A stretch of DNA of 64,000 bases from a virus: positions 1-64,000 of IMG/VR virus record IMGVR_UViG_3300001336_000002; one strand, given 5' to 3'. This document shows, piece after piece, positions 33,175 through 63,158 of the stretch. Both the position numbers and the translations under genes were made by a program. Each line of letters opens with the position of its first letter. Positions within the stretch are counted from its first letter, which is position 1. The notes below the pieces were generated by a model. It was given only the letters and a program-made list of their open reading frames with translations. It was not told the origin of the DNA and made no database searches.

Positions 33175-34224
33175 ATGATTAGTTATAAAAATGAGGCGCT
33201 ATGTTTTGATGACGTTCTTTTAGTGCCCCAGCATAGCGATGTATCTTCTAGGCACTCAGTTAATACAAAGATGGTCATCGGATCAGGCAATCGTAAAATT
33301 GAATTAGGCCTGCCAGTGATCGCTGCCCCTATGGATACTGTTTGCGATGTAGAAATGTGTACATCTCTTTCTAACGCAGGCGGCATGGGAATCCTTCATA
33401 GATATATGTCTTATGATGATCAAGTTTTTAAAACAGAAATGCTTACAAAAAGCGATATTGTTTTTGGCGTAGCAATTGCATCTAACAATGGGTTTATTAC
33501 TCAGGCGCAAAGACTTCATGATGCTGGTGCCAGGGTGCTACTTGTAGACACGGCAAATGGTCACGGACAATATGCAATCGACGCAGTAAAAGAATTAAGG
33601 TTTAATTTTCCAGACGTACACATAATGGCTGGCAATGTTGCTACCATGGAAGGCTTTGCTGAACTTGCATCTGCAGGGGCAGACAGCATTCGTGTGGGAA
33701 TTGGCGGAGGTAGTGCGTGTACAACAAGACTGGTTAGCGGCCATGGAATTCCGACACTAGCATCTATTATCGAATGTGATAATTGGAGAGAGGAATATTC
33801 TGGAAACGGAATAAACAATTGTTCAATCATTGCTGATGGAGGAATTAGAAACAGCGGAGATATGGTTAAGGCATTTGCTGCTGGAGCAGATGCTGTTATG
33901 GTTGGCTCTATGTTTGCGGGAACTGATGAATCACCAGGGGAAATTCTCACGGACGGGCAGGGGAGGACTGTAAAGGCATTTAGGGGAATGGCCTCAGCAG
34001 AGGCACAAAAAGATGCTACAGGTAATGTGTCTGTGGCAGAGGGTGTTTCTACTACCGTTCCTTACAAGGGATCAATTAATCATATCCTTGACGACATTCG
34101 CGGGGGCCTAGGAAGTGGATGTTCCTATTCTGGAGTACATAATCTAAATCAACTTTCATCTTTTGCTAAATATGTCAAGGTTAGCCCACTTAGTATCAAT
34201 GAGTCAAAACCACATGCTCTATAA
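33175..34224 (+). CDS. guaB: IMP dehydrogenase / GMP reductase (no CBS domains)
   Basis: FDDVLLVP, APMDTV, GIGGGSACTT catalytic Cys, IADGG, FRGMAS. Confidence 0.85.
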   Translation: MISYKNEALCFDDVLLVPQHSDVSSRHSVNTKMVIGSGNRKIELGLPVIAAPMDTVCDVEMCTSLSNAGGMGILHRYMSYDDQVFKTEMLTKSDIVFGVAIASNNGFITQAQRLHDAGARVLLVDTANGHGQYAIDAVKELRFNFPDVHIMAGNVATMEGFAELASAGADSIRVGIGGGSACTTRLVSGHGIPTLASIIECDNWREEYSGNGINNCSIIADGGIRNSGDMVKAFAAGADAVMVGSMFAGTDESPGEILTDGQGRTVKAFRGMASAEAQKDATGNVSVAEGVSTTVPYKGSINHILDDIRGGLGSGCSYSGVHNLNQLSSFAKYVKVSPLSINESKPHAL

Positions 34225-39095: not shown

Positions 39096-39291
39096 TTATA
39101 CACAGGTTATCCACAATAGGGTTATTGCATATATATATAAAGCCGACTTTTCCACATAAAATATAATAAATCCTACTAAAACATAGCAAAATAGGACAAA
39201 ATCGGACATTTTAGGACAATAATCCCCCGGAAATATAATAGTTATCCACAAGTTATCCACAGGATGGGTATATATAAAAAAGTTATCCACA
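39096..39291 (+). promoter_or_regulatory. Cluster of six co-oriented DnaA boxes in AT-rich intergenic DNA
   Basis: TTATCCACA at 39107, 39242, 39253, 39283; TTATACACA at 39096; TTTTCCACA at 39148. Confidence 0.8.
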
Positions 39292-39367: not shown

Positions 39368-39877
39368 TTATAGTTTGAGAATATCTACTGGTCCCTGGCA
39401 AGTTGGGGAGAAATAAATTGCTGACTGTACAGCCAATTCTATTCTATCTTCTGTTAATAATGTCTTAGATGTATATAGGGAACCTAAAGCAAAGGGTCCA
39501 CCACTACCTATAGCAGTTGCTTTTACTTGCGCTACGCTCCAGTCAGAAGTATTAAATTCAAACAACATTCCATTTGCCCCAATAAGAAAATCTGCAGCAT
39601 GTTCAGGATCAGCATTGCCATAATCTTCTATAGCAGATTTAAGACTAGATGCTATGTCTGTTCTTATTAACCTATATATATCATTATTAGGTATAGGGAG
39701 ATCGATCATTTCCATTAACTGCCCCGTTCCAAGGGAGGCAGCATAACCAAAGATCCATCCATCCTTTACATGGATTTTGGGGCGGGATAAAGAAATCATA
39801 CTATCTTCATCACTAGCACCTCTATCTGCTCCCATATATACATGCTTACCTGTAGATATACCCACAATAACTGTCAT
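39368..39877 (-). CDS. HslV/proteasome-beta-like Ntn peptidase
   Basis: N-terminal (M)TVIVG, GAD, AIGSG, AVQSAI. Confidence 0.75.
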   Translation of the reverse strand: MTVIVGISTGKHVYMGADRGASDEDSMISLSRPKIHVKDGWIFGYAASLGTGQLMEMIDLPIPNNDIYRLIRTDIASSLKSAIEDYGNADPEHAADFLIGANGMLFEFNTSDWSVAQVKATAIGSGGPFALGSLYTSKTLLTEDRIELAVQSAIYFSPTCQGPVDILKL

Positions 39878-39895
39878 GGAGTAATTATATCCTAA

Positions 39896-40110
39896 CTTCC
39901 AGCGATTTTTTAGGTTCCTTCGTAAAGGTTTTTAATAAATAATTAAATCTTAAAACCTCAAAAACTCCCAGCCCATTTTGGGCTCCTTCGTAATACTTTT
40001 TTCAAAAATTCTCAGCCCATTTTCCGGTCCTTCGTAAAGGAGTTTTAATAGAATAGTTTTAAATCCGGTCAAAACTCCCAGCCCATTTTTGAGAGGGATC
40101 GTAAAGGAGT
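39896..40110. repeat. Four imperfect direct repeats CAGCCCATTTT-Nx-(CCT)TCGTAA(AGG)
   Basis: Copies near 39899, 39969, 40013, 40079 separated by AT-rich DNA. Confidence 0.75.
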
Positions 40111-40382
40111 TTTTATTTAGTTTAAGTTGGACCGGCCCCGCCACCCAAACCCGTTGTGTCGCAATGACTTTGTGGGCTTAGTGGCGAAACCTGTTGTCCT
40201 GCAGCCTAATCAAACAGCATAGCCAAAAAGATTGCAGGGACAATCAGAAGGGACATAAGCCCAATCATCCCAATCATTACCTCTGACTTTCCTGTAGGAC
40301 GAATAGATGAATCTTGACTCATCCTCTGAACACGACGGGAATGATGATATCCTGTAGCCTTGCCAATACCCATAGTGACTCC

Positions 40383-40875
40383 TTAGTTTTTCTGTGAAAC
40401 AGCAATAGCAGACTGATCTAGCAAGTCATCTAGTGATGAGAAGTTGCGAGATGAAAGCCCCAGCATATCGCAAACATCGTTATAGCATGAATCTATAGAG
40501 GCTTCTCCTTCAGTAGAGGCAGACAGAACGTTGCCGTTGGCAACAGATACCGCAAGGGCAAAGGAATCAAAGTGACTGTCAAAAAATGAATACCAAGCCT
40601 CGTTGTCAATCATTGTGTTGTATAGATCAGCAAGAATCTCTACCTTGTCAATAAGTTCCATCGAATACTCCTAGATCTAGTGTCATCTGCCCTGGCACAT
40701 TGTCAAAGTGCCCTGAGTTACGATAATACTCTAATCCCTCCTGAAATGTCAAGATATTGTGAAGGATGCGAGGTCGAGCCTTGGAATGAACGTAGAATGA
40801 TACGATCTTCCATTCCTCATCGCTCAGTTCCGCATCGTTATAGACCTTGATGATTGCGTCTGCTTTCTTCTCCAT
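40383..40875 (-). other. Two small hypothetical ORFs (40648-40875, 40383-40661)
   Basis: Leaderless start after TAGGAT; overlapping pair. Confidence 0.55.
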
Positions 40876-41027
40876 ACCCGAATCCTATCATAGTTGGGGG
40901 ACAAATACAAGTGGGGGAGAGGCTGGTAGCGAATCAACCCCTCCCCCTTCCGATACCTGCACGAACCCTGCGTTAACGAGAGCCGTGTTCTTATCGGCGG
41001 TGTCACCATCCTAAGTGACTTGTGTCC

Positions 41028-41363
41028 TTATTTAGATGGTGACTCCTTTTGTTTGAGCCAACCGCATGACCATCTACCTCGCTCTACGGTGTCTCTATTG
41101 TTGTCTCCTTGTGTACCACCCAAAAGGTGGGCGGGATTGTTACAAGATGGATTGTCGCAAGTATGTCTTACGACTTCTGGTAGATATCCATTTGTCTTGT
41201 AGAACATGTATCTATGGCTACGCTGTATCTTTGGTCTTTCACACCAGAAGAAGCCATATCCATCTTTATCCACTTTCCCTTTCCAAGGCCAACATTCTGT
41301 TTCGCCATTCTGTTCTATCTGTGACCAGAACCGCTTTTCTCTTTTAGTTTCCCAGGTGCCCAT
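41028..41363 (-). CDS. HNH endonuclease
   Basis: CWPWKG..GYG..HR..VRHTCDNPSCNNPAHLLGGTQGDNNRD. Confidence 0.88.
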   Translation of the reverse strand: MGTWETKREKRFWSQIEQNGETECWPWKGKVDKDGYGFFWCERPKIQRSHRYMFYKTNGYLPEVVRHTCDNPSCNNPAHLLGGTQGDNNRDTVERGRWSCGWLKQKESPSK

Positions 41364-41403
41364 GTATTTATTATATCAGAGTCCTTAGGCATTTCCTTAG
41401 GGA

Positions 41404-41556
41404 CTACCGCGCAGCGACGGCGGGAGCCTTGCGGAGACCTGTAAGATTGACAGAATCAATAAACTTGCCATCCTGATCACGGATAACCACACGCTCCTGA
41501 GTGCCATAGCGAGTGTTCCAGGTCTCAAGGTAAGTGTACTTACGAACCTTAGCCAT
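41404..41556 (-). CDS. Small basic protein (50 aa, not in ORF track)
   Basis: aaggag RBS; MAKVRKYTYLETWNTRYG. Confidence 0.6.
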   Translation of the reverse strand: MAKVRKYTYLETWNTRYGTQERVVIRDQDGKFIDSVNLTGLRKAPAVAAR

Positions 41557-41612
41557 ATTGCTCTCCTTTACTAGTAAGGGTTTTATCTATCTGAATATTC
41601 ATTCAGAAATCT

Positions 41613-42065
41613 TTAGTTTTCAGACCAGTCAACCTCTACACGATCTTCTGAGAATTCTGCATCAACATCATTTTCATAGTATGAAACGCTGAGGCTTGGT
41701 TCCAATATGTCTTCCAAGGTATCCATATCAAAGTTCAGGGGAGCCTTGACAGTACCCGTGAATGTCACGGTAACCTGTACGTCATATTCCTTGCTGATAT
41801 CAAGATCAAAAATCTCAACCAGGCGTTGGGAAACTTCTTCGTCCATGTAATCGAAGTTATCCCTGATGTATTCTTCTAACTCATCTACCTTCTCCTGAAG
41901 TTTGGTGTACATGTTGGCATAGTTAGAACGACGGGATTCTGCAATCTCTAGATCGTTCTTTAGTTGAGCAATCTGTCGCTCCAACTCTTCCGCTGAAGCA
42001 ATTACGTTGTAAGGATTAGTAGCAACCTCTGCATCTGTGATATCTACAAAAGTAGGATCAATCAT
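41613..42065 (-). CDS. Acidic coiled-coil hypothetical protein
   Basis: ORF; heptad region. Confidence 0.6.
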   Translation of the reverse strand: MIDPTFVDITDAEVATNPYNVIASAEELERQIAQLKNDLEIAESRRSNYANMYTKLQEKVDELEEYIRDNFDYMDEEVSQRLVEIFDLDISKEYDVQVTVTFTGTVKAPLNFDMDTLEDILEPSLSVSYYENDVDAEFSEDRVEVDWSEN

Positions 42066-42066
42066 T

Positions 42067-42456
42067 TCAGACTCCAATCTTAGGCTTGGCGTACTTGTTG
42101 ATGAATTCCTCGCGGGTGAACGAGACAATGCTATCAGTTAGAACCCCCGCTTTCCAGTCAAAATCATACAGAGTTACCTCGCGGGTAGCAAAGTCATAGA
42201 CGGGAACCTTGTGCTCATTGTCTGCAAGGTAGTTGACCGTGATACCCCATCCAAGATCGCCGTTCCAATCCTCGCCAACCAACTGCGAGATGACAATACG
42301 AGTCCCATAGGCGGGATCATCAAGGCGTCCAACATTTCGAGCATATTCAAGAGCCTTAGCGAACTGGGCAAGCATTCCATATCCTGCCCAATGTCCGTAC
42401 ACGAAGATGGTATTGCCGTCAGTCTGACGCAATCCGAAGTTAGCGCGATCTCCCAT
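42067..42456 (-). CDS. Conserved phage hypothetical protein (MGDRANF..VY.HWAG)
   Basis: ggagg RBS; upstream TTGACC-N18-TAGACT promoter. Confidence 0.7.
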   Translation of the reverse strand: MGDRANFGLRQTDGNTIFVYGHWAGYGMLAQFAKALEYARNVGRLDDPAYGTRIVISQLVGEDWNGDLGWGITVNYLADNEHKVPVYDFATREVTLYDFDWKAGVLTDSIVSFTREEFINKYAKPKIGV

Positions 42457-42566
42457 TTTATTCCTCCAACGCTAGATAATAGTCTGAATACTCTTTGTCA
42501 TGTACCGCAAAGTCTATACCTAGTTCCTTGCACAGGTCAAGACTTTCTTGAAAGTTTTCCTGGCCC

Positions 42567-44656
42567 TTATACAGGTGAACCATTATAGGCCACCCATTTA
42601 TGTTCTGAATAATCAAATAAGGAAAGTTGTTCTGGGTCTTCTTTTAGTCCTTCCTGCCACCGCAGATATCCTGCATAGGATTCGTCTGGCTCTGAGCAGT
42701 CCCACCAGACAGCATCCCACAGGCGCAGTTCATCTAGCATATCCTGAGCCGTGATGATGCGACCATTAGGAAGTTTGTGCTGCAGGGTGAGTGCATCTTC
42801 ATTGCTGATCTCATATTGCCAGTCCTCGGGAATGTCTGCCCAACCTAGGATATATGGATCAGCCTCATCTACAAACTCATCAAAGAATTCCTGCACGGAC
42901 AACTGAATGTCGGCGGGAATGGGTGGATAAAAGTTATTAGTAAGGTGCATGGTGATATCGGTCATGAGGTCTCCTCAATCTCTACTGAATCTTGTAAGAA
43001 GCCGCCTTCGGTAAGCACGGCATCCTCATGATTATACTCGCCACTATAGAATTTTTCCCTAGCCTCATCCATATCAGTAGCCTCTACTTCTAGCGTCCAC
43101 CAATCTTCTGTTGTGTAACTAATCTGAAACTTAGGCATTAGTCGAACAACTCCTTTGGTAGAGTATCGTTGGCGGTATCAAAGATGATGCTATAATCCTT
43201 AGCAATTTCATCTTCGATATCCCTGCAATACTGAAGTGCTAACATTGGGTTATCGGCCTCTACAACAATGGCTGCTCTGGTAGCGACAAGATACTTAGTC
43301 ATTACGATACCTCCTGCGAAACGGTGCAGTATAGTGGTGCGTAATGGTGCATTACGAGACCTCCTGCGGAATGGGAATAACATCAACTAGCGAGTATAGT
43401 GTATTGAGAAGGGTCTGGTCAAGTGCCTCCAGACCTGGCGTATCATCGCAAGGGGCAAACCAGCCGTAGCCAGTTTCGGGGGAAGAAGAATCATACTCAT
43501 AGACATTTCCATCAGGGAAGTAGCCAAAAGTATCAAGTTCTACAAACCACTTCTGCATATCAGTATCGAATCCAATAACATAGTGAAACTGCATGGACAC
43601 TCCTTATCCTGTGTAGGGCTGGGTCCAGTCCCAGGCATAGTTCTGAAGAATATCTTCTACCCGATCAAGAGCCTCAGACTCATCCTCGGCGTCAATAATA
43701 AAACTAACATTCTGAACCTCTACGGTGATATCCATCATTCCTCCTCATCCAGAGACTCTTCTGTGGTCTCATGAATAATCTGAATCTCTCCAGACCTCAT
43801 CATGTCATTGAGAATATCCATCTCGTTAGGCTCTGAATCAAAGTAGACTTCGTAGTCATATGCCGCTTCTTCGCGGGTAGACTCTAGCATGATCGTTCCT
43901 GATACACGATAAGTAGGCATCATTCCTCCACAAAGTTGTAGTAAAGACGGGTGTACCCATTCTCAGTCTCATGGTTGCTATATTGCAACGTACCCTTCAC
44001 GCCGTCAGACCTGCGCTGAACAATGCAAAGATCATAGAAGAATCCTAGAACCTCATATTCCTCTAGCATCTGATCCTTGGTAAGCATATTACTGGCTAGC
44101 ATGTCATTCCTCCGTCCAATCCAATGCGTGATCGCTAAAAAATGCTACTCCGCAATTATATCCATGTCTCCACATAGGAGCAAGGGGTGTCGAAATAAAT
44201 TCTGGGCAGTTGCTCCACTCCACCTGATCTGGGAATACTTCCTGCAACTCATCTGGAATATCTCCCAGGTAGCCAATCATGAAGGCCAAAGCAAAGGTCT
44301 CGTGCTCATCGCTGGGAATTCTAGGATTGGTGTTCATCTTCAGCCTCCGTTAGATATAGGCTCTGGTCTTCCACTTCCCAATACAAATTATCGGGGGCGG
44401 TACTGTTGAGATAGTCTATTGCATCATAGTAAGTGCCGTCAAGAGAATCAAGAATGTCAAACATGATATCTTCATCATCTCCTGATGATCTAAACCATTC
44501 GATATCTTTGACAAACTGTTCATACATAAGGTCGAAACCTTTATCATGAGCAAACTCAATAACGGCTACGGAAAAGTCAAATGCGGACCAATGCGATCCG
44601 TCAATGTAGCAACCAGTTTCCACATCAGTTCCAATCTTCGGGGCGGAATCCGCCAT
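42567..44656 (-). other. Run of small acidic hypothetical ORFs (42567-42965, 43138-43386, 43352-43600, 43735-43923, 43920-44102, 44104-44337, 44321-44656)
   Basis: Coupled ORFs with ggag RBS; typical early host-takeover genes. Confidence 0.6.
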
Positions 44657-44804
44657 TGGTTAGCCATTCGTCTAATGCTACAAAGTTCTCAGCGAGTTCT
44701 CCAATGAACTCATCAACTTCGGCGGCAGACATAAGGTTGATCCCCACATCCTCCCATGAATAAATCAGTTCTCTGATATTTTTGAGTGCTTCATTAGGGT
44801 CCAT
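44625..44804 (-). CDS. Small actinophage-type protein (MDPNEAL...LDEWLTNGGFRPEDW; 59 aa, not in ORF track)
   Basis: Leaderless ATG 6 nt after TAGGAT. Confidence 0.7.
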   Translation of the reverse strand: MDPNEALKNIRELIYSWEDVGINLMSAAEVDEFIGELAENFVALDEWLTNGGFRPEDWN

Positions 44805-44961
44805 AACTGCATCCTATATCATGGGTCTGACATTGACAAGAAAAAATATCCACGGGTTTTTCAAGGCGTTCGTAAGGGTCTTCGTAAAAGAGATTATTTT
44901 GTTTTATATGAAAATGCGACCGGCCCCGAAAGTCGTTGCAGCACAAGCACTTTCATCAGTA

Positions 44962-45036
44962 GGCGCACCTGATGGGATTTGAACCCACGACCTCTACCGT
45001 GACAGGGTAGCGAGCACTCCGCTGCTCCACAAGTGC
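44962..45036 (-). tRNA. tRNA-Asp (GTC)
   Basis: GCACTTG/CAGGTGC; CTACC-CTGTCAC-GGTAG; GTGGG-TTCAAAT-CCCAT. Confidence 0.92.
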
Positions 45037-45040
45037 GTGC

Positions 45041-45070
45041 AGGCAGTTTATCCATACATGCCCAGGTATG
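45041..45070 (-). ncRNA. Small H-type pseudoknot motif, copy 1
   Basis: CATAC-CTGGGCAT-GTATG-GATAAAC-TGCCT. Confidence 0.6.
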
Positions 45071-45122
45071 TGAGGTCAGGTCCGAAGTACGATCACCCAA
45101 TCCCCCAGCGCTAGGGGATGAT

Positions 45123-45150
45123 GGGCAGTTTTACATCATGCCCAGGATGT
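45123..45150 (-). ncRNA. Small H-type pseudoknot motif, copy 2
   Basis: ACATC-CTGGGCAT-GATGT-AAAAC-TGCCC. Confidence 0.6.
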
Positions 45151-45176
45151 TAGGGTACTATGACATGTCATCCATG

Positions 45177-46157
45177 TCAGGCAAAGGCGACAGCCTTGAC
45201 AGCCTTTAGCAGACGATTCTTCTCTGCATTGGTAGCAGCATCGAAACCGCTAGCAGCAGCGAGGACACCTTCTGCATTACCCCCGCGAGGGTTGCGGAAC
45301 CAGTCCAGGCGCTCCGTCAGAGTGTTGTACGCACCCCACGCAGTACCCTTGATGTTGCCAACGGTGTCACCCTGGTAGATGTCAAACAGGGTATCGACCT
45401 TGTTTGTCCACTTGGTGACACTACCCTTGACATCCTTGTCAGGCTCAGGGTAGACAGCCTTGATGATATCGAAGAAGGTATCAGTCGTGATCTCCTTTTC
45501 GATCAAGGTCTGCGCCTCCTTCTCAAACTCATCCAGGTAAGCATTGGCAAGGCCAAGAGCCTCACGCGCAGCCTGCACCTTGCCAGTAACCGTGGAGGTG
45601 TGACGAATCTTGTAGGACTGCTTCACACCATGCAGCGCATAGTTCAGAGTGTTCTGGCACACAACGCGCACAGGGGTAACGGATGCCTGCACAGCAAGCG
45701 AACCATCATGCGAGGTGTGAACCAGCAGATAGGTGTTCACCTTATCGGTAGCACCGCTGGGGTCAAGGACTACCTCGCGGTCAAGGGCAAGGGAGCCAAA
45801 GACAACCGTGCCATTCTTGATGCTGCCAGCGGTCTCCCAACGGCCACCGTCAAGCATATTGTCAGCAAACGAGAACAGATCCTCGTTCTGCAGAACCTTG
45901 TAACGCTCACCCACAACGCCAAGGACATCGCGGTCACCGTCAAACGGATTCTTGCGAGTGACAGCAAAATAGTTCTTGTGTGACCGACCAGGCAGATCAA
46001 CGTCATCAAGACGAACATTCCAGCCAGCCAGATGAGCGACCTGAAGCATTTCCGATGTGCTAACCTCGTGGTCAAGGATGGTGCCAAGACCATGCCAAGC
46101 GGGTTCGCGCAGGGAAGCGAAGGAAGCCATATCTCCGTACTGCTCTAGCATGTGCAT
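45177..46157 (-). CDS. DUF932-family phage/plasmid protein
   Basis: PAWHGLG, YKVLQN, ETAGS, SHDGS, TPVRVVCQNTL, RHT, GTAWGAYN. Confidence 0.9.
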   Translation of the reverse strand: MHMLEQYGDMASFASLREPAWHGLGTILDHEVSTSEMLQVAHLAGWNVRLDDVDLPGRSHKNYFAVTRKNPFDGDRDVLGVVGERYKVLQNEDLFSFADNMLDGGRWETAGSIKNGTVVFGSLALDREVVLDPSGATDKVNTYLLVHTSHDGSLAVQASVTPVRVVCQNTLNYALHGVKQSYKIRHTSTVTGKVQAAREALGLANAYLDEFEKEAQTLIEKEITTDTFFDIIKAVYPEPDKDVKGSVTKWTNKVDTLFDIYQGDTVGNIKGTAWGAYNTLTERLDWFRNPRGGNAEGVLAAASGFDAATNAEKNRLLKAVKAVAFA

Positions 46158-46329
46158 ATCATTTCCAATCTGTAGTAACTGATGATGTCATCATCCTATC
46201 AAGATGGTCTGACATTGGCAAGAAGAAAACGCAGATTTTCAAAATATTTTTTGCAGGGGGTTTGTAACGGGTTCGTAACGATGATCGTAAAAGACTTGAC
46301 AAAATTAGAATTTCGGGCCGGTCGCAAAA

Positions 46330-46950
46330 AGGTGTCCCCCAGGGGAGCGGCGGTGGGTGGGGGAGCGCTCAACCCTGAGGGACGTTTAGGGGAGCAGTTT
46401 GTCATCATGCTCAGGATGCCATATATGGTTATCAAACCTAGTGATTCAGATATTTATTCTATAGAGGGTCAGGGGCTACCTGATTTCAACTATAGACGAC
46501 TCAACCTGAATGCTATTGTTTGACAGTTTGGGAAGAATAGACGGACTCCTTTGCGGTTTACCCGCCGCTGATCAGACTTTGGGTAGCGCCCAAGGCGTGT
46601 TCTATTCTTCCTAGCCACCTTTAGGGAATCGAACCCTATATTACCCAACCAGGGAAGGCAGAGTGCATTACTTTCTAGAATGTTCATGCACCAAGTTTAG
46701 GAAGGAGCATTATCTGCATTGCTTTTGCTCCTAAATTCCCAGGCGACTCCTGATATAGTTGTATAACGTATTAGCAGACCTGGGTGGGGAAGTGAGTCGA
46801 TGTGGGGGTAGTTATCACAACTACCTGCCTCTTTCCATCTAGTCTAAAGAAGCGGATCTATTTTATGGGTGCCTGGGCTAATCCGACCCCTACATCCCTC
46901 CGCGACTAGATGAGTCCTATTCGGCCCCACGGGTCACATATCCCCAAGCC
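46330..46950 (-). ncRNA. Putative large structured ncRNA or ncRNA cluster
   Basis: No credible ORF; several 6-11 bp stems, tRNA-like module, pseudoknot copy 3 (46392-46418), GC hairpin + U-tract at 3' end. Confidence 0.6.
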
Positions 46951-46981
46951 ACTATTTATTTATGTGATTATTGTAACATAT

Positions 46982-48297
46982 TTACTGAGAGGTTGTCCAA
47001 CGATCTCCACTAGGAGTTGTAAGACGGATTCGATATGTACCCTGCGGATTGGGCACGATCTCCTGGATGGTGCCTGTCACACCTGACTTTGCAGTAGTGA
47101 AGGTCTCTCCGATAGCCAACATATTACTTACCCACAATCTGAATAGGAATGGACTTGGTTTGGTTGGTCGCTCCATTAAAGTGACCCTTTTCGTTGCGAA
47201 CAACGGCCTTTACAGCGTCGCCCCACTTCTCAGTACGAACAATGATCTTTGACATTACCCACTCTTTCTGTCGTTGTTGTTGATATTAGTTTACAGTTCT
47301 GGCCAGGGATTGTCAAGGGTTTCTCTAAAATCTTCTGCAGTTGCGTCTATGACACCCTCTTCTATCCACATCCCTACCCCCACCATACCTTGAATAGCGG
47401 AGGCACCTATAGAATAGGATATATCATCCAATGTACCAATGTCAACCATTTCTTTTAAGTCTTGGACTGCTACTGCCACGGCAAGTTTGATATGAGAAAC
47501 AATATCTTCCCCATTGACATAGCAAATATTGTCAATCATTTTGTATTCTACATCTGTTTTATCAAACGTATTCATTGACTATAATCCTTAGTTCTGATCT
47601 TCCAGAGGCTTTCAGCACCTTGCCGTTGCCCTCCTCATCGACCAGGGTAAGGATATGCAAGTCATCACCCTCATCTGCATAGTCTGTGCCTACAACATGA
47701 TAGATGTCGTCTTTGATTAGAATCATGTCCCCTGGCTCAATTGAATAGACTTGCATTAATTCAGTAGTCATTGTCTTCTCCATTATATTAGAGTTTATAA
47801 CCAGCCAAAGAGCACAACACCCAAGGCCATGATGAGCGGTAGAATGATAATGGCAGTAAATAAAATCCCAATAATAGTCTCAATAGAATTGGGACGAGGT
47901 GGCTCATCCATTTAGTGCTCCTTGGGCATCATCGACTACCTTGGCATGAACAGACATCTCATTATGGATAATCATCAGGGTAGATGCAAGGATTTCATCA
48001 TCTGTAATGTTGTAAGCATTCTCTATATAATACAGAGCCATCGCCAGATGGCTGTATGATGCTTTTAGGTTTAGTTGGACAGAGACATCTCTTTCACTCA
48101 TTTAGATACTCCATCCACGATTGCAGGGCGGTAGTGAAATCAAGTTGACTAGGATTATTCTTCTCCCACCCAAAAGTAAATACATCTACCTCGCCACCTT
48201 CTCCAAACACGTTGGCAGTATGGCTACCCTTTGTCCATCGAACGACGACGGTAGGCAGATAAGCAACCATTTCATTTTCTCTAGAAAGAATCATCAT
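46982..48297 (-). other. Small hypothetical ORFs (46982-47203, 47291-47575, 47562-47783, 47904-48101, 48094-48297)
   Basis: Minus-strand ORFs downstream of promoter at 48305. Confidence 0.55.
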
Positions 48298-48445
48298 GTG
48301 TTACACACTAGCATATGGGACTGACATTGACAACTTTTTTACGAATTTTTTCACGACTTCGTAAGGGCTGTTCGTAAGAGCGTTATGTCTGATTGTTTGA
48401 TGGCCCGGCCCGAAAAACCGTTGCAGGACAACGGCTTTCGAGGTT

Positions 48446-48670
48446 CTATGCAATAGCCCCCAAAGTCATTGCAAATGAACGCCTTTCAGCACCTGTCATG
48501 CCACCATAGACATGCGGCTCAAAGTCCTCATTTTCGATAGCGAACATGAGGCAGTCGTCAATCACGGGACACGATTCACAAATCTCTTTAGCCTGCATGA
48601 CGCGAGATGTCACTCCCGTCAGGAACAATGCGCTGTCTGCATCCTTGCACGCTGCCCTATCCTGCCACAT
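48446..48670 (-). CDS. whiB: WhiB-family regulator (second copy, HVYGG turn)
   Basis: WQDRAAC..LF..AKEICESCPVIDDC..YGGMT..ERR. Confidence 0.85.
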   Translation of the reverse strand: MWQDRAACKDADSALFLTGVTSRVMQAKEICESCPVIDDCLMFAIENEDFEPHVYGGMTGAERRSFAMTLGAIA

Positions 48671-49200
48671 TTGCAATCTCCTTTTTCCACTCGCGCTTCT
48701 CGCGCTTCTTGATGATCTTTCGTTCCATCCTAGCATCGGGGTATGACATGCAGCACCCCCAGTAGCAACGCATTCCGTGCTTGCCGATATTGCGGCGGGT
48801 ACGAATCATTCAGCCTCCGTCCATCGAACACCGTCAACGATAATATCTTCATCTAGATACATGACGCGAGAATAGTCGAACGCGTTATCTGGCATCATGT
48901 GGTAAATGTCGATCCATGCTTTTTCTAGTTCGATGCTTAGATCCATTCGACTAGATCTCCATCCATGATCTCGTTTACGTCAAGGCCATTGGCCTCTGCA
49001 ATGGCTTCCCACAGTTCTTCTTCCGTGAACCGTCCGTCCTCTGGCAGGTAGTCGATGTATGACATGTCAGTGCTCCTGTTCATCTACTTGATCGGTTATG
49101 TCGTTATAGAGGGATGTGATGATGTATCCCTGATTCATTAGTTCGCGCAGGCATTCCAATACCTGATCCCAGTCTGCGCGTGGCATCTCTACGGTTACCA

Positions 49201-49401
49201 TCACACACCTCCAAAAAATAGGTTGGTCATATTGTAGTTGTCGATTCTGATCCCCTTGTGGAACGTGATATCGACGCTCGCACCATTGAGCATATCTTCA
49301 TATTCATCGGGGTCGATCTCATCGACATTGCACAGATATACCTTGTCGCTGAGAGGGATCACGGTGCCCGTTCCCTCGTGGTAGATAAATAGATTCTTCA
49401 T
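49201..49401 (-). CDS. Hypothetical protein
   Basis: Leaderless after promoter at 49408. Confidence 0.6.
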   Translation of the reverse strand: MKNLFIYHEGTGTVIPLSDKVYLCNVDEIDPDEYEDMLNGASVDITFHKGIRIDNYNMTNLFFGGV

Positions 49402-49606
49402 GGTTTCACCTTACACTAGGGGTCTGACACTCAGGCCCAGGGGTCATCATCGGGGGTCGGGAATCGACGGGAGGACAAGGCTTGAGCCATGACAGAATAT
49501 TCCTCAAGTCCAGAACGCATGATCTCATCACAGGATGAGCAGATTAGGTGGAACCGCTCGCACGGTCCCTGGCATAGGAGGCAGTTTGTCTTCATGATAT
49601 TTCCTT

Positions 49607-49825
49607 TCAGCAGAATGGGCAGGGAGTCTTGATGGAATCGACAATCTGGACACTACCAGCCTCGTTCACCCAACGAGGGCCAACGCGACCAAACTCATCC
49701 TTCAGATAGATCGAATAGCGGAACATGGCGAAGGAAGGCTTATGGATACGCACAACCTCACCCTTCGTTCCATCGGACATGCGGACCAGATCGCCCACCT
49801 TGATATCTTTCACAGAGACCTTCAT
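49607..49825 (-). CDS. Small SH3/KOW-like protein
   Basis: DIKVGDLVRM..GEVVRI; aaaggag RBS. Confidence 0.6.
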   Translation of the reverse strand: MKVSVKDIKVGDLVRMSDGTKGEVVRIHKPSFAMFRYSIYLKDEFGRVGPRWVNEAGSVQIVDSIKTPCPFC

Positions 49826-50402
49826 GATCTCTCCTTTCTGCTATGTCTCTATTCTTGCATAGGGGTCTGACATTCACAAATCGAGAATGTGTATAAAACG
49901 GACATTTTAGATCACAGAATGATAACAGAATAGAGAGACATTTTTCGAATGCGTGTTCGATTCTAAAAAGTTGTTGGTAGACAAGGGGTTTTCAGCGTGT
50001 TCTTAAAGTGATCGTAAAAGTTGTTGTGGCACAACAGGTTTGCGGCCCGGCCCGCCCCGCTCAAAACCGTTGCAGCACAACGGCTTTCATCGATTCATTA
50101 TCACAAGGGCAGACCACAAAACAATCATGACGACAAAATATCCAGCAATAGCAACGGGTTTCGGTCGGTATGGTGAAACTAATAGCATGGCAAATATCAC
50201 CATTTGAAAAAATATAGCAATGGCAATCACCTAGTCTCCCAATCGAAATCGACGTTGAAGTCCTTTAGCATACCACTAGCGTCGCCTAGATATCCAGAAA
50301 GATATGCTAGTGCTTGATCGGAATTGGGGAATGTCTTTTGGAATGATCTTTCACCATAGCCAACGTCGATGGTGAAAGTGACTGTGGGAGTAGGGTGTTT
50401 CA

Positions 50403-50960
50403 TCATGCCGCCGACCCCCTAACGATGATCCAGATGAGCGCCTGAGCGGTGCGAGGGGTGATGCCAAACTGTGAAGCAACGGAGGTGATAGCCTCAGACA
50501 ACAGACGATATTGTGTCTTGTTAGGCGAGTCGGTGTCCATGCCAGCAGCACGCATCATCCAAACGTCGATGACGACAGCATCGGTGTCACCAGCGATAGC
50601 GCGAGCGAAGGCGTTGGTCTTGAGACCCTTCAGGGCTGAAAACCCTTGCGAGACAGCGGCTTCCGCCATGCGAAGATTATTAGACAGGCCGCTAACTGGC
50701 TTGCCATTGGCGAACGCATATGCCTTAGCGACATTGGATGCCCAACGCTCACGAGGGGAGAAGGCAGACACGATGGACGCGCCATGCTCTAGGCTCACAC
50801 CTAGAATCTCAGCAACGTCTTCCGCAACCTCTTGCGCTTCCAGATACCAAGTCGAAGCGGCTTCCATCTGGGCGAGGGTAGCGGTCATGATAAGGCTCTC
50901 AAAACGAGCGGCGGCTGATGCGAACACGGAGGTGCCCTCTGGGGCGGTAACTGTAATCAT
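50403..50960 (-). CDS. Conserved phage protein (SAFSP..W..N / K..AF / VVIDVW family; possibly HhH-glycosylase-related)
   Basis: WY, SAFSPRERWASN, GLKTNAF, VIDVW, QALIW; leaderless. Confidence 0.6.
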   Translation of the reverse strand: MITVTAPEGTSVFASAAARFESLIMTATLAQMEAASTWYLEAQEVAEDVAEILGVSLEHGASIVSAFSPRERWASNVAKAYAFANGKPVSGLSNNLRMAEAAVSQGFSALKGLKTNAFARAIAGDTDAVVIDVWMMRAAGMDTDSPNKTQYRLLSEAITSVASQFGITPRTAQALIWIIVRGSAA

Positions 50961-51283
50961 GGAATGATCCTATCAAAGGGGTCTGACATTCTGAGGGTAT
51001 ATGGAGGATTATTCGGTAACGAAACGGTCACGATGCTTGGACTTACGGTTATACCTGGCCTTATTCCTATGGGGCTGGGCAGCATTAGAACGACGACGGT
51101 CCATGATGGCTCGCTGATGACTATTAGACCTGCGTGACTTATTCATGGCATGATCCTATCATATTTAGATAATCATGTCAAATGAAAAAAGTTGTTGTGT
51201 CTCAAGGGTTTCTAGCGATTCAGGGAAATATCGTAACCTCGTAAACCGTTGCAGCACAAGGGAAATCGCGCCCGGCCCTCTTT

Positions 51284-52448
51284 TCAGGATTTGTCAAGTA
51301 TCTCCTGTATGTCGTTACGAACCTGCAACAACTGTTCGATCATGCGTTCGACACGCTTGTATTCATCAGGGTTGTCTGTCGCATAGTACGCACGATCCAG
51401 GGGGTCTAGAGTGAGATAGATATCATTGCTAGCCTTCTTTAGGTTAGACAAGAATGCGTCATGACGCGAGATGGTCTTCATTAGTCCTCCTGATATTCAT
51501 CGAAGTCTAGGGGCTCATAGTCAGCACACCAACCGCAGATAGTATCGGTGCTATCTGCCCAATCCCAGAACACCTCATCACATGAGGCGCAAACAACTGC
51601 TTCCAGGTTGATCTCATATGTATCGTTCATGGATTCACCTTATCATGATAGTCTGACATTCATCAATGAAAAATAAAAATGCTTTTTATTACATGATCGT
51701 AACGAGTGTTCGTAAGGGCTTGACAAGTGCAAAGATTTGGGCCGGGCCTGAAAACCGTTGCAGCGCAACGACTTTCGGCTACATGGTTTCGATGTGTCCC
51801 ACCAAGCCCATGAGCATGGCGAAGGCGAAAACACCTAGTGTCACAAGGACTTTCTCCATCACAATGCCTCCACAAAGTCGTTGCCGTGCAACACCTTTTT
51901 GATGACGGGAAGGTGGTCATCACACACGAGGGTAGACACATGCTTTCCATTGTACTCAGACACCTGAGTCACCTTGTGGGTAGCACGAGCACGGCTCACG
52001 CGGTTATCGCAGAATACATGCTGGCAGACGGGCGAACCGTCGCGGGTATAGTTAGGCCAACCCATGATGATCACTCACTCTCATTACTGTAGAACACTTG
52101 CTGTTGGACACGGATATAGTTGTTGATTGCTTGCTGGATCTTGTTCATGGTATCACCTTATCATGGGGGTCTGACATTGTGGCCTAGGGCTCATCCCCTT
52201 GCGGGGCTTATTTGCCTAGGAAGATTTAGTTATTAGGCGAACACCCTAGCCCTATGGCAGTCAGCGCAGATGATGGTGTCATTCACGATGGACAGGTCAG
52301 CGGTGTTATTCGTTCCGCAGGTCCAGCAAGCCCACGGCTCGCGGCGGATCTGTCGGTCATAGTATTCTGTGATGCCCCAGAACACAACGGTGAACACAGC
52401 GGGGATTCCGATGAAGATAGCGATTGCCATCAGGATACCTTCGAACAT
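51284..52448 (-). other. Small hypothetical ORFs (51284-51481, 51859-52074, 52233-52448 and shorter ones)
   Basis: Each lies downstream of a TGTCAG promoter. Confidence 0.5.
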
Positions 52449-52552
52449 TTGTCTAGCCTTTCTTCTTGTGTTGCTTCGATACTATCACAGGGGTCTGACA
52501 TTGGACGAGAGGTTAGACCAACTCCTCGTCCACGAACCGAATAATCTCAGTG

Positions 52553-52568
52553 TCGAACGGCTGTTCGA
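52553..52568. promoter_or_regulatory. Perfect actinobacterial LexA box TCGAAC-N4-GTTCGA
   Basis: TCGAAC GGCT GTTCGA; one-mismatch copies at 49945-49960, 51336-51351, 52925-52940. Confidence 0.55.
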
Positions 52569-53093
52569 TTGCAAATGCTTCGGCGGCTTCACGAGTATCG
52601 AACCGTGCAACGGTACGCCCCATGACACGAGCCACGCTATAGCCTGTACGGGTAATCCACATATCTGTCACCTCCTTTGCTTTCATACCTGAAGACTATC
52701 AGATTGGTCTGACATTGACAAATTTGAAAAGGTGCAAATCGGACATTTTAGATAACAGAAATGTAACGAAATTTTTCGCTCAGGTGTTCGATTATTTTGA
52801 TCAAAAATTCTACGCTGAGGTTCGATCAAAACCGTTGCGCTGCAACGACTTTTGTCGTATAGCAAGGCTGAAAAGTTGTTGTGCTGCAACGATTTTTGCT
52901 GTGGCTGAGTGCGCTCTATCTTATTCGAATTTTTGTTCGATTTTGCGTACCGTACACACTTACAAAATATTAAACTTTAGTTCAAATCCAATTCTGATAA
53001 AATTTTAAGAATTAAAAATATGGGCACACAAAAAATTTTTAAACTTTCTATAAATCGAATATATCAACTCATCATGCGTAGTATCATATATAC

Positions 53094-58934: not shown

Positions 58935-61547
58935 ATGGCTACGCTTATACAAATTAGAAGAGATACCCAGACAAATTGGACAACAAATGATCCAATATTA
59001 GCATCTGGTGAAATTGCCTTTTCTACCGATCAATATAAAATTAAAATAGGTGATGGAACTTCTAATTGGTCTGCCCTCGCTTATATGACTGCAACACCCA
59101 CAGAAATTACAAATCAAATTAATGCAGCAGTAGCAGGAATTATTGACGCAGCCCCCGCAGCCCTAGACACTTTAAATGAACTAGCAGCCGCGCTTAACGA
59201 TGATCCAAATTTCTTTACTACAGTTGCCAACAATCTCTCTAATCACGAATTGGATTCCACCAATGTTCACGGCATTGAAAATACGGCAGATCTAGCAACA
59301 AAGAACTACGCCGACACTGCTGTGTCAACGCATAATAGCGACACTACAAGCGTTCACGGAATATCAAATACCGCCAATCTTGTTTATACAGATGATTCAA
59401 GGCTCTCTGACGCAAGAACTCCAACATCTCATAACCACACAACATCTGAAATTACTAATTTTACAGAAGACGTAGAAGATGTTGTAGGTGGTATGGTATC
59501 AAACAATACGGAGTCTGGGATTTCCGTTACATATGACGATGAAGCAGGAAAACTAAACTTTAATGTAAACGATCCAACCATTACTCTTTCTGGGGATGTT
59601 TCTGGCTCTGCTACGATGACTGATTTAGGAAACGTAACCATTACTGCCACCGTCGCAGATGATAGTCATAATCACATTATTGAAAATGTAGATGGGCTAC
59701 AAAACGCGCTTGATACCAAGTTAGACTCAGCATCCTACACCGCTTCAGACGTTTTAACAAAAATTAAAACTGTAGATGGATCTACTAGTGGACTAGACTC
59801 CGACTTGCTTGACGGACAGGAAGGATCTCACTACCTAGACTGGACAAACACCACAAACAAACCAGACCCTGTAATAACTCTGGCAGGAGATTTAAGTGGA
59901 TCAGTAACACTTACAGACTTAGAAAGTGGAACTCTTACAGCCACTATAGTTGCAGATTCGGTTGCTCTAGGAACAGATACCACGGGTAATTATGTGGCAA
60001 CCGTAGCAGGAACAGATGGAGTTTCTGTATCTGGATCAGGGTCTGAAACCGCTGACGTTACAATAGCAAACACCGATAAAGGATCTTCACAAAATATATT
60101 TAAAAATGTTGCAGTATCTGGTCAATCTGATATAGTTGCAGACTCCAACAATGATACTCTTACTGTTTCGGGTGGAACAGGCATATCTTTAACAACAAAT
60201 GCAACAACCGATACCCTTACCGTTACAAACTCTGGAGTAACCTCTCTAACAGGAACGTCCAACCAGATATCAGTTTCTGATTCTACTGGATCAGTAACCC
60301 TTTCTACTCCACAGAACATTGATTCTTCTGCAAGTCCAACATTTGCTGGTGCCACTCTTGACTCAATAAAGGTCGGTATGACAAATGCTAACGAAATTGA
60401 TACAACATCAGGAAATCTTATTTTGGATTCCGCTGGAGGAACTGTAGAAATAGATGACAACCTGATTGTTTCAGGAGATTTTACAGTTAATGGATCTACC
60501 ACCACGATCAATGCAACCACCATTACAGTAGATGATAAAAATATTGAACTTGGATCTGTAGATAACCCAACTGACACTGCCGCAAATGGCGGAGGAATTA
60601 CTCTTAAAGGAACAACAGACAAAACATTTAATTGGTCTGATGCTACAGATTCCTGGACTTCATCAGAGCATATTGACCTAGTTAGTGGAAAAGTATTAAA
60701 AATTAATGGATCTCAGGTTCTTTCTGCAACAGAATTTGTTGGAAATTCGGCAACCGTTACTGATGGCGTTGTTACTACTGGTTCATATTCTGATCCCTCC
60801 TGGATTACAGGTCTGTCATGGAGTAAAATTTCTTCTACTCCAACAACTCTTTCTGGGTATGGCATTAGTGATGCACAGCCCCTGGACACCGAACTAACGG
60901 CTCTTTCTGGACTAACGTCTGAAGCAGACGCGCTACCTTATTTCACGGGAGCGGGAACAGCAGCAATAACAATGTTCACCTCCTTCGGCAGATCATTAGT
61001 AGACGATGTAGATGCTGCTACTGCAAGATCAACAATGGGTATTGGAAATGTAGAGAATGTCGCACTGTCAACATGGGCGGGAAGTACAAGCGTCACTACT
61101 CTAGGGACAATAGTTACTGGAACATGGAACGGATCAGTTATTGGAGATTCATACATAGATTCTGGAATTGCAAGACTTGCTTCACCATCATTTACTGGAT
61201 CTATTACATTAGATTCAAAGGCAAATGTAGATACAACAAGTACAACTATTTCTGCAACTACCGCCACAACTATCGATACTCTAAGTGCTTCTTCATACAG
61301 AAGCGCAGAGTATTTGGTACAAGTAACACAAGATACAAAGCAAACAGTATCAAAAATTATCATGATTCATGATGGAACTACCGCCAATATTTCAGAATAC
61401 GGTGTCATTGAATTAGGAGGAACGAGAATTCCTCTTACACTCTCTGCCACCATTTCTGGAACAGACGTACTTCTGCAAGCAACTATTACAGATGCCGATA
61501 CTACAAATGCGACGGTAGAAGTAGTTAGAACAGCAATTGTGCTATAA
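58935..61547 (+). CDS. Long tail fibre protein with Mtd N-terminal-like domain
   Basis: IQIRRDT..W...PILASGE..KIKIGDG..W..LAY; APAALDTLNELAAAL. Confidence 0.8.
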   Translation: MATLIQIRRDTQTNWTTNDPILASGEIAFSTDQYKIKIGDGTSNWSALAYMTATPTEITNQINAAVAGIIDAAPAALDTLNELAAALNDDPNFFTTVANNLSNHELDSTNVHGIENTADLATKNYADTAVSTHNSDTTSVHGISNTANLVYTDDSRLSDARTPTSHNHTTSEITNFTEDVEDVVGGMVSNNTESGISVTYDDEAGKLNFNVNDPTITLSGDVSGSATMTDLGNVTITATVADDSHNHIIENVDGLQNALDTKLDSASYTASDVLTKIKTVDGSTSGLDSDLLDGQEGSHYLDWTNTTNKPDPVITLAGDLSGSVTLTDLESGTLTATIVADSVALGTDTTGNYVATVAGTDGVSVSGSGSETADVTIANTDKGSSQNIFKNVAVSGQSDIVADSNNDTLTVSGGTGISLTTNATTDTLTVTNSGVTSLTGTSNQISVSDSTGSVTLSTPQNIDSSASPTFAGATLDSIKVGMTNANEIDTTSGNLILDSAGGTVEIDDNLIVSGDFTVNGSTTTINATTITVDDKNIELGSVDNPTDTAANGGGITLKGTTDKTFNWSDATDSWTSSEHIDLVSGKVLKINGSQVLSATEFVGNSATVTDGVVTTGSYSDPSWITGLSWSKISSTPTTLSGYGISDAQPLDTELTALSGLTSEADALPYFTGAGTAAITMFTSFGRSLVDDVDAATARSTMGIGNVENVALSTWAGSTSVTTLGTIVTGTWNGSVIGDSYIDSGIARLASPSFTGSITLDSKANVDTTSTTISATTATTIDTLSASSYRSAEYLVQVTQDTKQTVSKIIMIHDGTTANISEYGVIELGGTRIPLTLSATISGTDVLLQATITDADTTNATVEVVRTAIVL

Positions 61548-61581: not shown

Positions 61582-62139
61582 ATGGCAGATAAGAACTTCA
61601 AAGTAAAGAATGGTCTAGAAGTGGGAGACCATGATATTGTTACTCCTGATGGAACAATAACTCTTCCTAATGGAACCCATACTCTTGTACCTTCCGACTC
61701 TCCTACTCTTACGGGAACTGTAGGCCTTCCTTCAACAACCTCTATCGGAAATGTTTCAGACACCGAAATTGGATATTTAGATGGCGTTACGTCTGCTATT
61801 CAAACACAGTTAGACTCTAAAGCAGGTTCTTTAGTATCCATAAATACTCAAACTGGAACGTCTTATACATTAGCACTATCAGATTCTAATAAATTAGTAG
61901 AAATGAATAATGCTGCTGCGAATACTTTAATTATTCCACTCAATTCTAGTGTTGCTTTTCCCATTGGAACTAAGATTGATTTTATTCAAACTGGAGCAGG
62001 AGAAACATCTGCATCTCCAACATCTGGTGTTACCTTGAATTCAGATACTGATAAACGTACAATTAATGCACAATGGGCAGCGGCATCATTGATCAAGCGT
62101 GGAACAGATACCTGGGCACTTATTGGAGCATTAAAGTAA
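61582..62139 (+). CDS. Tail fibre-associated protein
   Basis: DKNFKVKNGL; TEIGYLDGVTSAIQTQLDSK; QTGTSYTL..LIKRGTDTW.LIG. Confidence 0.7.
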   Translation: MADKNFKVKNGLEVGDHDIVTPDGTITLPNGTHTLVPSDSPTLTGTVGLPSTTSIGNVSDTEIGYLDGVTSAIQTQLDSKAGSLVSINTQTGTSYTLALSDSNKLVEMNNAAANTLIIPLNSSVAFPIGTKIDFIQTGAGETSASPTSGVTLNSDTDKRTINAQWAAASLIKRGTDTWALIGALK

Positions 62140-63158
62140 TGAGTTTGTGGTTGGGTATATTGTCCGGTCAAATTTCTTCTACTGCTTTGCAAGAAAATAT
62201 TGCGGTATCGCACCAACTCAGTCCCTTCATCACCGTCTATCCTTGGAGTTCAGGCTTTGGCACCAAGTATGCCGATCCTGCTATATTGCCTTCCTCCGCT
62301 GGTTTCTCCACAGCATTTTCACCATCAGGCAATGATCTTGCGGTAGCGCACGACCTCGGTCCCTACATCACCGTCTATCCTTGGAGTTCAGGCTTTGGCA
62401 CCAAGTATGCCGATCCTGCTATATTGCCTGGTTATTACGGTTTCTCCACAGCATTTTCACCATCAGGCAATGATCTTGCGGTAGCGCACGACTTCTCTCC
62501 CCGCATCTCCGTCTATCCTTGGAGTTCAGGCTTTGGCACCAAGTATGCCGATCCTGCTATATTGCCTTCCTACACTGGTCTCTCCACAGCATTTTCACCA
62601 TCAGGCAATGATCTTGCGGTAGGGCACCGATTCAGTCCCTACATCTCCGTCTATGCTTGGAGTTCAGGCTTTGGCACCAAGTATGCCAATCCTGCTATAT
62701 TGCCTTCCTACACTGGTCTCTCCACAGCATTTTCACCATCAGGCAATGATCTTGCGGTAGCGCACGGATTCAGTCCCTACATCACCGTCTATCCTTGGAA
62801 TGCAGGCTTTGGCACCAAGTATGCCGATCCTGCTATATTGCCTTTCTACACTGGTCTCTCCACAGCATTTTCACCATCAGGCAATGATCTTGCGGTAGCG
62901 CACGAATACGCTCCCAACATCACCGTCTATCCTTGGAATGCAGGCTTTGGCACCAAGTATGCCAATCCTGCTATATTGCCGACGGGTTACGGTTTCTCCA
63001 CAGCATTTTCACCATCAGGCAATGATCTTGCGGTAGCGCACCGACTCTCTCCCCACATCACCGTCTATCCTTGGAGTTCAGGCTTTGGCACCAAGTATGC
63101 CAATCCTGCTATATTGCCTGCTTCTTACGGTTTCTCCACAGCATTTTCACCTAACTAG
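62139..63158 (+). CDS. Seven-bladed WD40-like beta-propeller, probable receptor-binding protein
   Basis: Seven 46-aa repeats (AFSPSGNDLAVAH..SP.I.VYPW) after short N-terminal adaptor. Confidence 0.8.
   Translation: MSLWLGILSGQISSTALQENIAVSHQLSPFITVYPWSSGFGTKYADPAILPSSAGFSTAFSPSGNDLAVAHDLGPYITVYPWSSGFGTKYADPAILPGYYGFSTAFSPSGNDLAVAHDFSPRISVYPWSSGFGTKYADPAILPSYTGLSTAFSPSGNDLAVGHRFSPYISVYAWSSGFGTKYANPAILPSYTGLSTAFSPSGNDLAVAHGFSPYITVYPWNAGFGTKYADPAILPFYTGLSTAFSPSGNDLAVAHEYAPNITVYPWNAGFGTKYANPAILPTGYGFSTAFSPSGNDLAVAHRLSPHITVYPWSSGFGTKYANPAILPASYGFSTAFSPN
62201..63155 (+). repeat. Tandem 138-bp repeat, 7 copies (last truncated)
   Basis: Units start at 62201, 62339 and every 138 nt thereafter; framework nearly identical at nucleotide level. 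Confidence 0.95.

Follow-up and report, generated by a model that had tools for sequence, protein, structure and literature searches.

The comparisons described here reveal that a block of small genes in an uncultured phage is preceded by a dozen copies of the element TGTCAG-N10-TANNNT, which is well supported by sequence as a promoter of the PafBC (RecA-NDp) architecture, conserved in a large family of aquatic actinophages. The DNA analyzed (hereafter, the window) covers the first 64 kb of virus record IMGVR_UViG_3300001336_000002, a complete genome (101,743 bp, 40.3% G+C) that is bounded by direct terminal repeats and was obtained from an aquatic metagenome. The promoter reading follows from the non-random occurrence of the sites, their placement, their strict spacing in about 80 relatives and their detailed likeness to recA promoters; we further consider it probable that the sites are 'sigma adaptation' promoters of the host-PafBC type, dependent on PafBC of the host.

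A spaced element before the small genes

The window holds 10 exact matches to TGTCAG-N10-TANNNT against 0.71 expected, and shuffled sequences never gave more than three. Nine of them lie on the minus strand of the small-gene block (sites P1 to P5, P7 and P9 to P11 in Table 1), exactly where a first-pass annotation of this DNA had placed them; the tenth, at 23355 on the minus strand, runs antisense within a glycosyltransferase gene of the plus strand and probably reflects chance, and the rest of the genome beyond the window adds no further exact copy. Two one-mismatch sites (P6 in the -10 box, P8 in the hexamer) and a degenerate one (P12), which that annotation had also listed, bring the set to 12, all of them on the minus strand between 40882 and 52714, intergenic and directly before starts of open reading frames (ORFs).

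The earlier claim that many sites stand 6 nucleotides (nt) before a leaderless ATG holds exactly for six of them (P1, P4, P5, P7, P11 and P12), with 7 nt at P9. At P3, the ATG 6 nt past the -10 box begins merely a 25-amino acid (aa) ORF, and the remaining four sites have leaders of 25–56 nt, three of these with a Shine-Dalgarno sequence. With a transcription start at the ATG of the leaderless sites, the 6-nt distance would place TGTCAG at -28 to -23. The local consensus, aaTGTCAGACCCCtaTGaTAGGAT (also written TGTCAGACCCCTATGATAGGAT, or in short form TGTCAGACCCC-N5-TAGGAT), is longer than had been proposed and consists of the hexamer TGTCAG, an ACCCC flank, the TG of an extended -10 and a weak -10 box (such as TAGGAT, TAAGGT or TAGTGT). 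TGTC is present in all 12 sites and TGTCAG in 10, TG occupies -15/-14 in 10 of the 12, and the gap between hexamer and -10 box is 10 nt at every site. TTGTCA or TTGCCA lies 17 nt 5' of the -10 box at P1, P9, P10 and P11, the same four sites as reported before, and the other 8 have no -35 box, so that the canonical -35/-10 pattern of the housekeeping sigma factor does not describe the set. A generic sigma-70 promoter scan of the block did not exceed shuffled sequences (35 against 26.2 ± 5.8), nor did a terminator scan, and the sole fully canonical promoter found in the block (51153-51181) has no TGTCAG.

Conservation in relatives

The gene downstream of P10 encodes a DUF932 protein that marks the phage family and that has 178 relatives in IMG/VR. 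Eighty of their loci, on contigs of up to 116 kb with 35–47% G+C and with DUF932 proteins 52–80% identical to that of the present phage, were compared. The motif reaches 26 copies per 21 kb in these loci, almost exclusively on the gene strand, where TGTCRG-Nk-TANNNT occurs 912 times at k = 10 and 3–180 times at other values of k (4–19); the opposite strand holds about 10. When the search was anchored on TANNNT alone, the hexamer at -28 to -23 was TGTCAG in 537 cases, TGTCGG in 157 and TGTCTG in 48, giving 742 for TGTC[A/G/T]G against at most 46 for any other hexamer. Single substitutions at positions other than -24 stayed at background level, and the GTC triplet was invariant. At -22 to -18, ACCCC is the 5-mer found most often in the family, and the other common flavor starts with TGG. 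A hexamer within one mismatch of TTGACA, at 16–18 nt, accompanies 153 of 776 sites (control position, 11) and is missing from 623. Flanks, -10 boxes and leaders drift, whereas the spacing and all but one of the six hexamer positions are invariant, which indicates that selection acts on the element itself and holds it at a set distance from the -10 box.

The promoter before the DUF932 gene, orthologous to P10, is kept in 65 of the 80 loci. In the closest relative by DUF932 identity (80%; L003, IMGVR_UViG_3300010354_000067), the DUF932 leader is retained about 100 nt upstream of position 2891, and TTGACA-17-TATGCT takes the place of the TGTCAG element; such a swap of the -26 element for a consensus -35 box is the behavior expected of a promoter part standing in for that box. 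The same relative has a repeated -35-type motif, CCTTGACAG, at other promoters. In five further loci (L016-L019 and L033), TGTCTG or TGTCGT occupies the same position with TGTC constant, a lineage-dependent variation at -24 and, in L033, also at -23.

Likeness to PafBC-dependent and recA promoters

In actinobacterial chromosomes, promoters of the PafBC type serve about 150 DNA-damage genes, and to our knowledge they are known from such chromosomes only; a literature search found no paper on PafBC-type promoters in phages and nothing on PafBC in Nanopelagicales. One study reportedly ties PafBC to mycobacteriophage resistance. PafBC-dependent promoters (RecA-NDp, recA P1-type) are read via 'sigma adaptation' (PMC8635444, PMC11804915, PMC8223512) and extend past mycobacteria (PMC8223512). 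Their in vivo consensus is tGTCgg(N10)tA(N3)T, with a -26 element spanning -23 to -28, the GTC triplet of which is read by R46 and R50 of PafB (PMC8635444), and a -35 box is absent from the published examples. The phage sites agree with this consensus in the sequence of the element, its position and the 10-nt spacing, which bears out the match first proposed, and most of them likewise have no -35 box. They differ from the chromosomal promoters in being phage-borne, in numbering a dozen and in preceding small genes of no known function instead of repair genes; moreover, a third of them have a -35-like hexamer, most have the extended -10 TG, and many are leaderless.

Beyond this minimal consensus, the phage promoters resemble the recA promoters of the PafBC-bearing genomes examined in their ACC(CC) flank and the TAGG flavor of the -10 box. 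Five actinobacterial metagenome-assembled genomes (MAGs; G001-G005), each with an adjacent pair of WYL genes, all have TGTC[A/G]GACC(C)-N6/7-TA(G/C)(G/C)GT upstream of recA (in outline, TGTCRGACCC...TAGGGT; one reads TGTCAGACCTCGTCGGTAGGGT). In a second, large actinobacterial order, which probably has planktonic members because some are rhodopsin-bearing, a motif of this form precedes 27 of 32 recA loci, mostly as TGTCACACCCCC-N4-TAGGKT. Small actinobacterial genomes of low G+C (36–45%) have PafB and PafC orthologues (7p5x PafB, E 2.8e-13; PafC, E 2.4e-20), with TGTCGG or TGTCGC-N10-TAtaAT upstream of recA in two of five. Adjacent PafB/PafC-like pairs were seen in nine genomes examined. For the recA promoters compared here, dependence on PafBC is presumed from the literature. 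The motif was not found upstream of the phage's own recA. Seven recA genes of the large order (G543, G544, G546, G560, G563, G576 and G585) have open frames of 717–780 aa with the RecA domain match ending at 198, which suggests inteins.

A second promoter class without the element

Elsewhere in the genome, on both strands and across the replication and structural modules, a second promoter class (class B) consists of a near-perfect TGnTATAAT 6–7 nt before leaderless ATGs, without a -26 element (Table 1), and looks factor-independent. The weakness of the -10 boxes of the block relative to this class supports the block being activator-dependent.

The phage and its host

The phage encodes DnaB, a DnaE-type polymerase, RecA, a Cas4-like nuclease, glycosyltransferases, a GMP-reductase-like enzyme, four tRNAs and two proteins of the WhiB family, which is characteristic of actinobacteria and the phages that infect them. 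Among cultured phages, Streptomyces phages of the Stanwilliamsviridae come closest, with about 53% identity in DnaE and about 56% in the DUF932 protein, and megablast of the block against GenBank phages gave no match. The two WhiB genes and these closest cultured relatives identify it, from gene content, as an actinophage with an actinobacterial host. It is not a mycobacteriophage; the mycobacterial framing of the first-pass annotation does not fit a 40% G+C aquatic phage only distantly related to Streptomyces phages, and it is therefore widened here to Actinomycetota. The phage seems to be of the lytic type; no lysogeny genes were noticed, in scans that included no search aimed at them.

Attempts at a finer host link gave none. 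The early WhiB protein found, among genome contigs, only homologues in high-G+C MAGs at 34–39% identity and thus no host link; a search with the DUF932 protein returned no match at E<=1e-40 across the 5, 151 and 331 genomes of three actinobacterial orders, a result uninformative either way; and endolysin look-alikes resolve only to 'Actinomycetota'. Around G180 and G352, two genomes of low G+C, small orders gave few WYL matches, and a rhodopsin search meant to single out planktonic actinobacteria pointed to no host either. A GMP-reductase/IMPDH-family (GuaC-like) gene at 33175-34224 (Pfam E 2.4e-97) has no homologue at E<=1e-90 in 401 sampled Actinomycetota, and for that reason is probably no recent acquisition from an actinobacterial host.

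A WYL protein was found in 344 of the same 401 Actinomycetota. Unpublished genomes contribute 13 to this tally and one each to the rhodopsin and recA-locus tallies, and neither an individual claim nor any sequence discussed here rests on them. In the phage itself, a six-frame search of the whole genome, which the first-pass annotation had called for, detected no WYL domain, and a sigma factor search gave only a sub-threshold Sigma70_r4 match. The searches revealed neither a WYL nor a helix-turn-helix family in the block, whose sole recognizable regulator is WhiB; Pfam and PHROG scans, which covered 38 proteins of the block and included no dedicated MotA/AsiA search, did not return MotA or AsiA.

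Composition of the block

The 12-kb small-gene block (window 40000-52000) has 45–49% G+C, against 36–42% elsewhere in the genome, and the only recognizable families among the 38 proteins scanned are DUF932, DUF7178, WhiB, HNH and an HslV-like peptidase. P11 heads about 11 contiguous small ORFs reaching down to about 41404. At the end of the block, a leaderless 169-aa ORF (39368-39877) follows a TATAAT and is probably the block member that matches HslV/proteasome-like peptidase families. The stretch upstream of the DUF932 promoter (46215-47290) yielded only short, weak ORF calls and no known RNA family in Rfam, the only Rfam match in the block being its tRNA.

Table 1 Promoter sites and genes of the block, and starts of the second promoter class (window coordinates unless stated)
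Feature	Position	Strand	Description
Block	39368..52714	-	about 45 mostly small ORFs
P1	52693..52714	-	TGTCAG-N10-TAGTCT, TTGTCA at -35; ATG 6 nt on (52686, 57 aa)
P1, alternative start	52662	-	in-frame ATG with Shine-Dalgarno sequence
P2	52479..52500	-	TGTCAGACCCC...TGATAGTAT; 30-nt leader, ATG 52448 (71 aa)
P3	52155..52176	-	TGTCAGACCCC...TGATAAGGT; 25-aa ORF 52148-52071, next ORF from 52074
P4	51637..51658	-	leaderless ATG 51630 (49 aa)
Canonical promoter without -26 element	51153..51181	-	TTGACA, 17 nt, TGaTAGGAT; leaderless ATG 51146 (45 aa)
P5	50967..50988	-	TGTCAGACCCCTTTGATAGGAT; leaderless ATG 50960 (DUF7178 protein, 185 aa)
P6	49851..49872	-	-10 mismatch AAGAAT; Shine-Dalgarno sequence, ATG 49825 (72 aa)
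P7	49408..49429	-	leaderless ATG 49401 (66 aa)
P8	48727..48748	-	TGTCAT variant; 56-nt leader with Shine-Dalgarno sequence, then WhiB gene
WhiB-family gene	48449..48670	-	74 aa, four Cys
P9	48305..48326	-	TTGTCA at -35; ATG 7 nt on (48297, 67 aa)
P10	46193..46214	-	TTGCCA at -35; 35-nt leader to DUF932 gene
DUF932 protein gene	45177..46157	-	326 aa; marker for the phage family
tRNA-Asp(GTC)	44962..45036	-	inside the block
P11	44811..44832	-	TTGTCA at -35; leaderless ATG 44804 (59 aa)
Class-B extended -10 promoter, no -26 element	41370..41378	-	TGATATAAT; leaderless ATG 41363 (HNH endonuclease, 111 aa)
P12, degenerate	40882..40903	-	TGTCCC...TGATAGGAT; leaderless ATG 40875 (75 aa)
TGnTATAAT-class starts, window	11148, 17145, 28285, 31377, 53309	+	
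TGnTATAAT-class starts, window	41363, 26945	-	
TGnTATAAT-class starts, genome coordinates	64829, 68989, 71643, 75531	+	

Discussion

In the predicted mechanism, PafBC of the host would be activated by single-stranded DNA (ssDNA) arising from infection, replication or nuclease attack. The helix-turn-helix of PafB would bind the GTC-containing -26 element, and PafBC would bridge from there to the housekeeping sigma factor at its region 4 ('sigma adaptation'), with host RNA polymerase starting 6–7 nt past the -10 box, often at the ATG of a leaderless mRNA. The 'early' timing of the block is suggested by its gene content, and we speculate that infection is the trigger. A further proposal is that this family of abundant aquatic actinophages has wired a probable host-takeover or counter-defence block to PafBC, copying the recA P1 promoter and using as its switch the ssDNA that infection brings as DNA enters, as the phage replicates and recombines, or as host nucleases attack. 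Virulent phages would in this way have hijacked a DNA-damage sensor of bacteria through positive control by an activator. We put the proposal forward tentatively, as a possibility that we would sooner doubt than assert.

Several observations weigh against dependence on host PafBC. WYL proteins are missing from 57 of the 401 sampled Actinomycetota (about 14%), mostly small genomes, including the low-G+C genomes G018, G033, G047, G048 and G078. The presence of PafBC in the host of this phage is presumed from that phylum-level survey, the host being assigned simply as an actinobacterium. The recA promoters of the large order have C at -23 (TGTCAC), which the phage family never has, and the arginine that aligns with R46 sits one residue off in the one PafB inspected from a low-G+C genome. 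In the cultured relatives BillNye, Sham and Warpy, which are Streptomyces phages, the motif is not enriched (0–2 per 130 kb, equal to the control). The 4 of the 12 sites, and the roughly 20% of those in relatives, that carry a -35-like hexamer need not depend strictly on an activator and could fire without one. As for timing, the standing of the block as the earliest class is weakened because host polymerase could read the TGnTATAAT promoters at once.

Chance clustering of a short degenerate motif might be invoked, as the one-mismatch pattern is not enriched in the window (31 against 26.8 expected), but this is already refuted by the excess of exact copies, nine of which stand at gene starts on a single strand within 12 kb, and by the roughly 900 further sites that relatives have at a single spacing; its probability is negligible. 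The sites could instead be activator-free extended -10 promoters of the housekeeping sigma factor, with TGTCAG(ACCCC) either a passenger, in a promoter cassette perhaps captured from host recA and duplicated through the block, or an operator at which a repressor shuts the block off. The TG in 10 of the 12 sites would suit this reading, since an extended -10 can work without a -35 box, as would the -35-like hexamer at four sites and the fact that the promoter at 51153-51181 and the relative L003 manage without the element. However, the hexamer (at five of six positions) and its spacing are invariant down to 52% protein identity while their surroundings drift, a repressor site would not need phasing to the single nucleotide, and the weak -10 boxes of the block are unlike those of the element-free TGnTATAAT class. 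We regard an activator-free block as unlikely.

Another explanation is a reader encoded by the phage or delivered with the virion, comparable to MotA with AsiA of phage T4, which would make the block a middle one, independent of host PafBC. The docking site of WhiB-family proteins on the housekeeping sigma factor is its region 4, and a WhiB-like protein acting there together with an unrecognized DNA-binding partner would be a candidate: the phage has two WhiB genes, one inside the block, the strong TGnTATAAT promoters elsewhere could supply the factor first, and most block proteins belong to no known family, leaving room for a novel DNA binder. Such a reader would nevertheless have to converge on the hexamer, its position at -28 to -23, the 10-nt gap, the ACCCC flank and the TAGG -10 box of recA promoters; the failure to detect a WYL or helix-turn-helix family in the block tells against it, as does the fact that the block's own WhiB gene follows one of the promoters in question (P8). 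We therefore judge a phage-encoded reader to be distinctly improbable.

In the middle promoters of T4, the MotA box at -30 likewise replaces the -35 box, and an adaptor contacts sigma region 4 (MotA/AsiA 'sigma appropriation'). The T4 adaptors, however, are phage-encoded and remodel sigma, whereas here the element is the same as the one read by a host activator, and no phage adaptor was found in scans that were not aimed at MotA or AsiA homologues. SOS-coupled switches, based on LexA-like repressors and RecA-stimulated cleavage, also tie phage expression to a host sensor of ssDNA or damage; they act through repressor cleavage in prophages, in contrast to the positive control by a host activator at many promoters envisaged here. 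As for cultured relatives, the Stanwilliamsviridae (BE/BK clusters: BillNye, Sham, Warpy and Yaboi) share genomes of more than 100 kb and a DUF932 gene among small genes inside the terminal repeat. Unlike the present phage, BillNye, Sham and Warpy are not enriched in TGTCRG-N10-TANNNT, so the Streptomyces phages offer no ready laboratory model.

Use of the PafBC promoter type, in many copies, by a large and widespread group of lake phages would be the first case of phages recruiting a host 'sigma adaptation' activator. It would suggest that WYL regulators, whose sensing of ssDNA has until now been tied to host defence, can also be made to serve a phage. The family would also provide hundreds of natural variant promoters showing what PafBC tolerates (a free -24 position, ACCCC or TGG flanks, presence or absence of a -35 box). 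The promoter type could further help to assign hosts to such uncultured phages.

Other features of the window

A 174-aa ORF (16591-17115) matches PF03497 (Anthrax_toxA) weakly and below the cut-off (E 5.8e-5), and also holds the sub-threshold Sigma70_r4 match mentioned above (16642-16719, E 2e-3). An Mtd_N (major tropism determinant) domain lies at the N terminus of an 870-aa protein, and regions 58935-61547 and 62073-63158 may belong to a diversity-generating system. Matches to the DnaA box (TTWTNCACA) number 11 in the whole window against 8.4 expected; the notable part is their clustering, with six co-oriented copies within 200 bp (39096-39291), four of them TTATCCACA, at the place where two transcription blocks converge.

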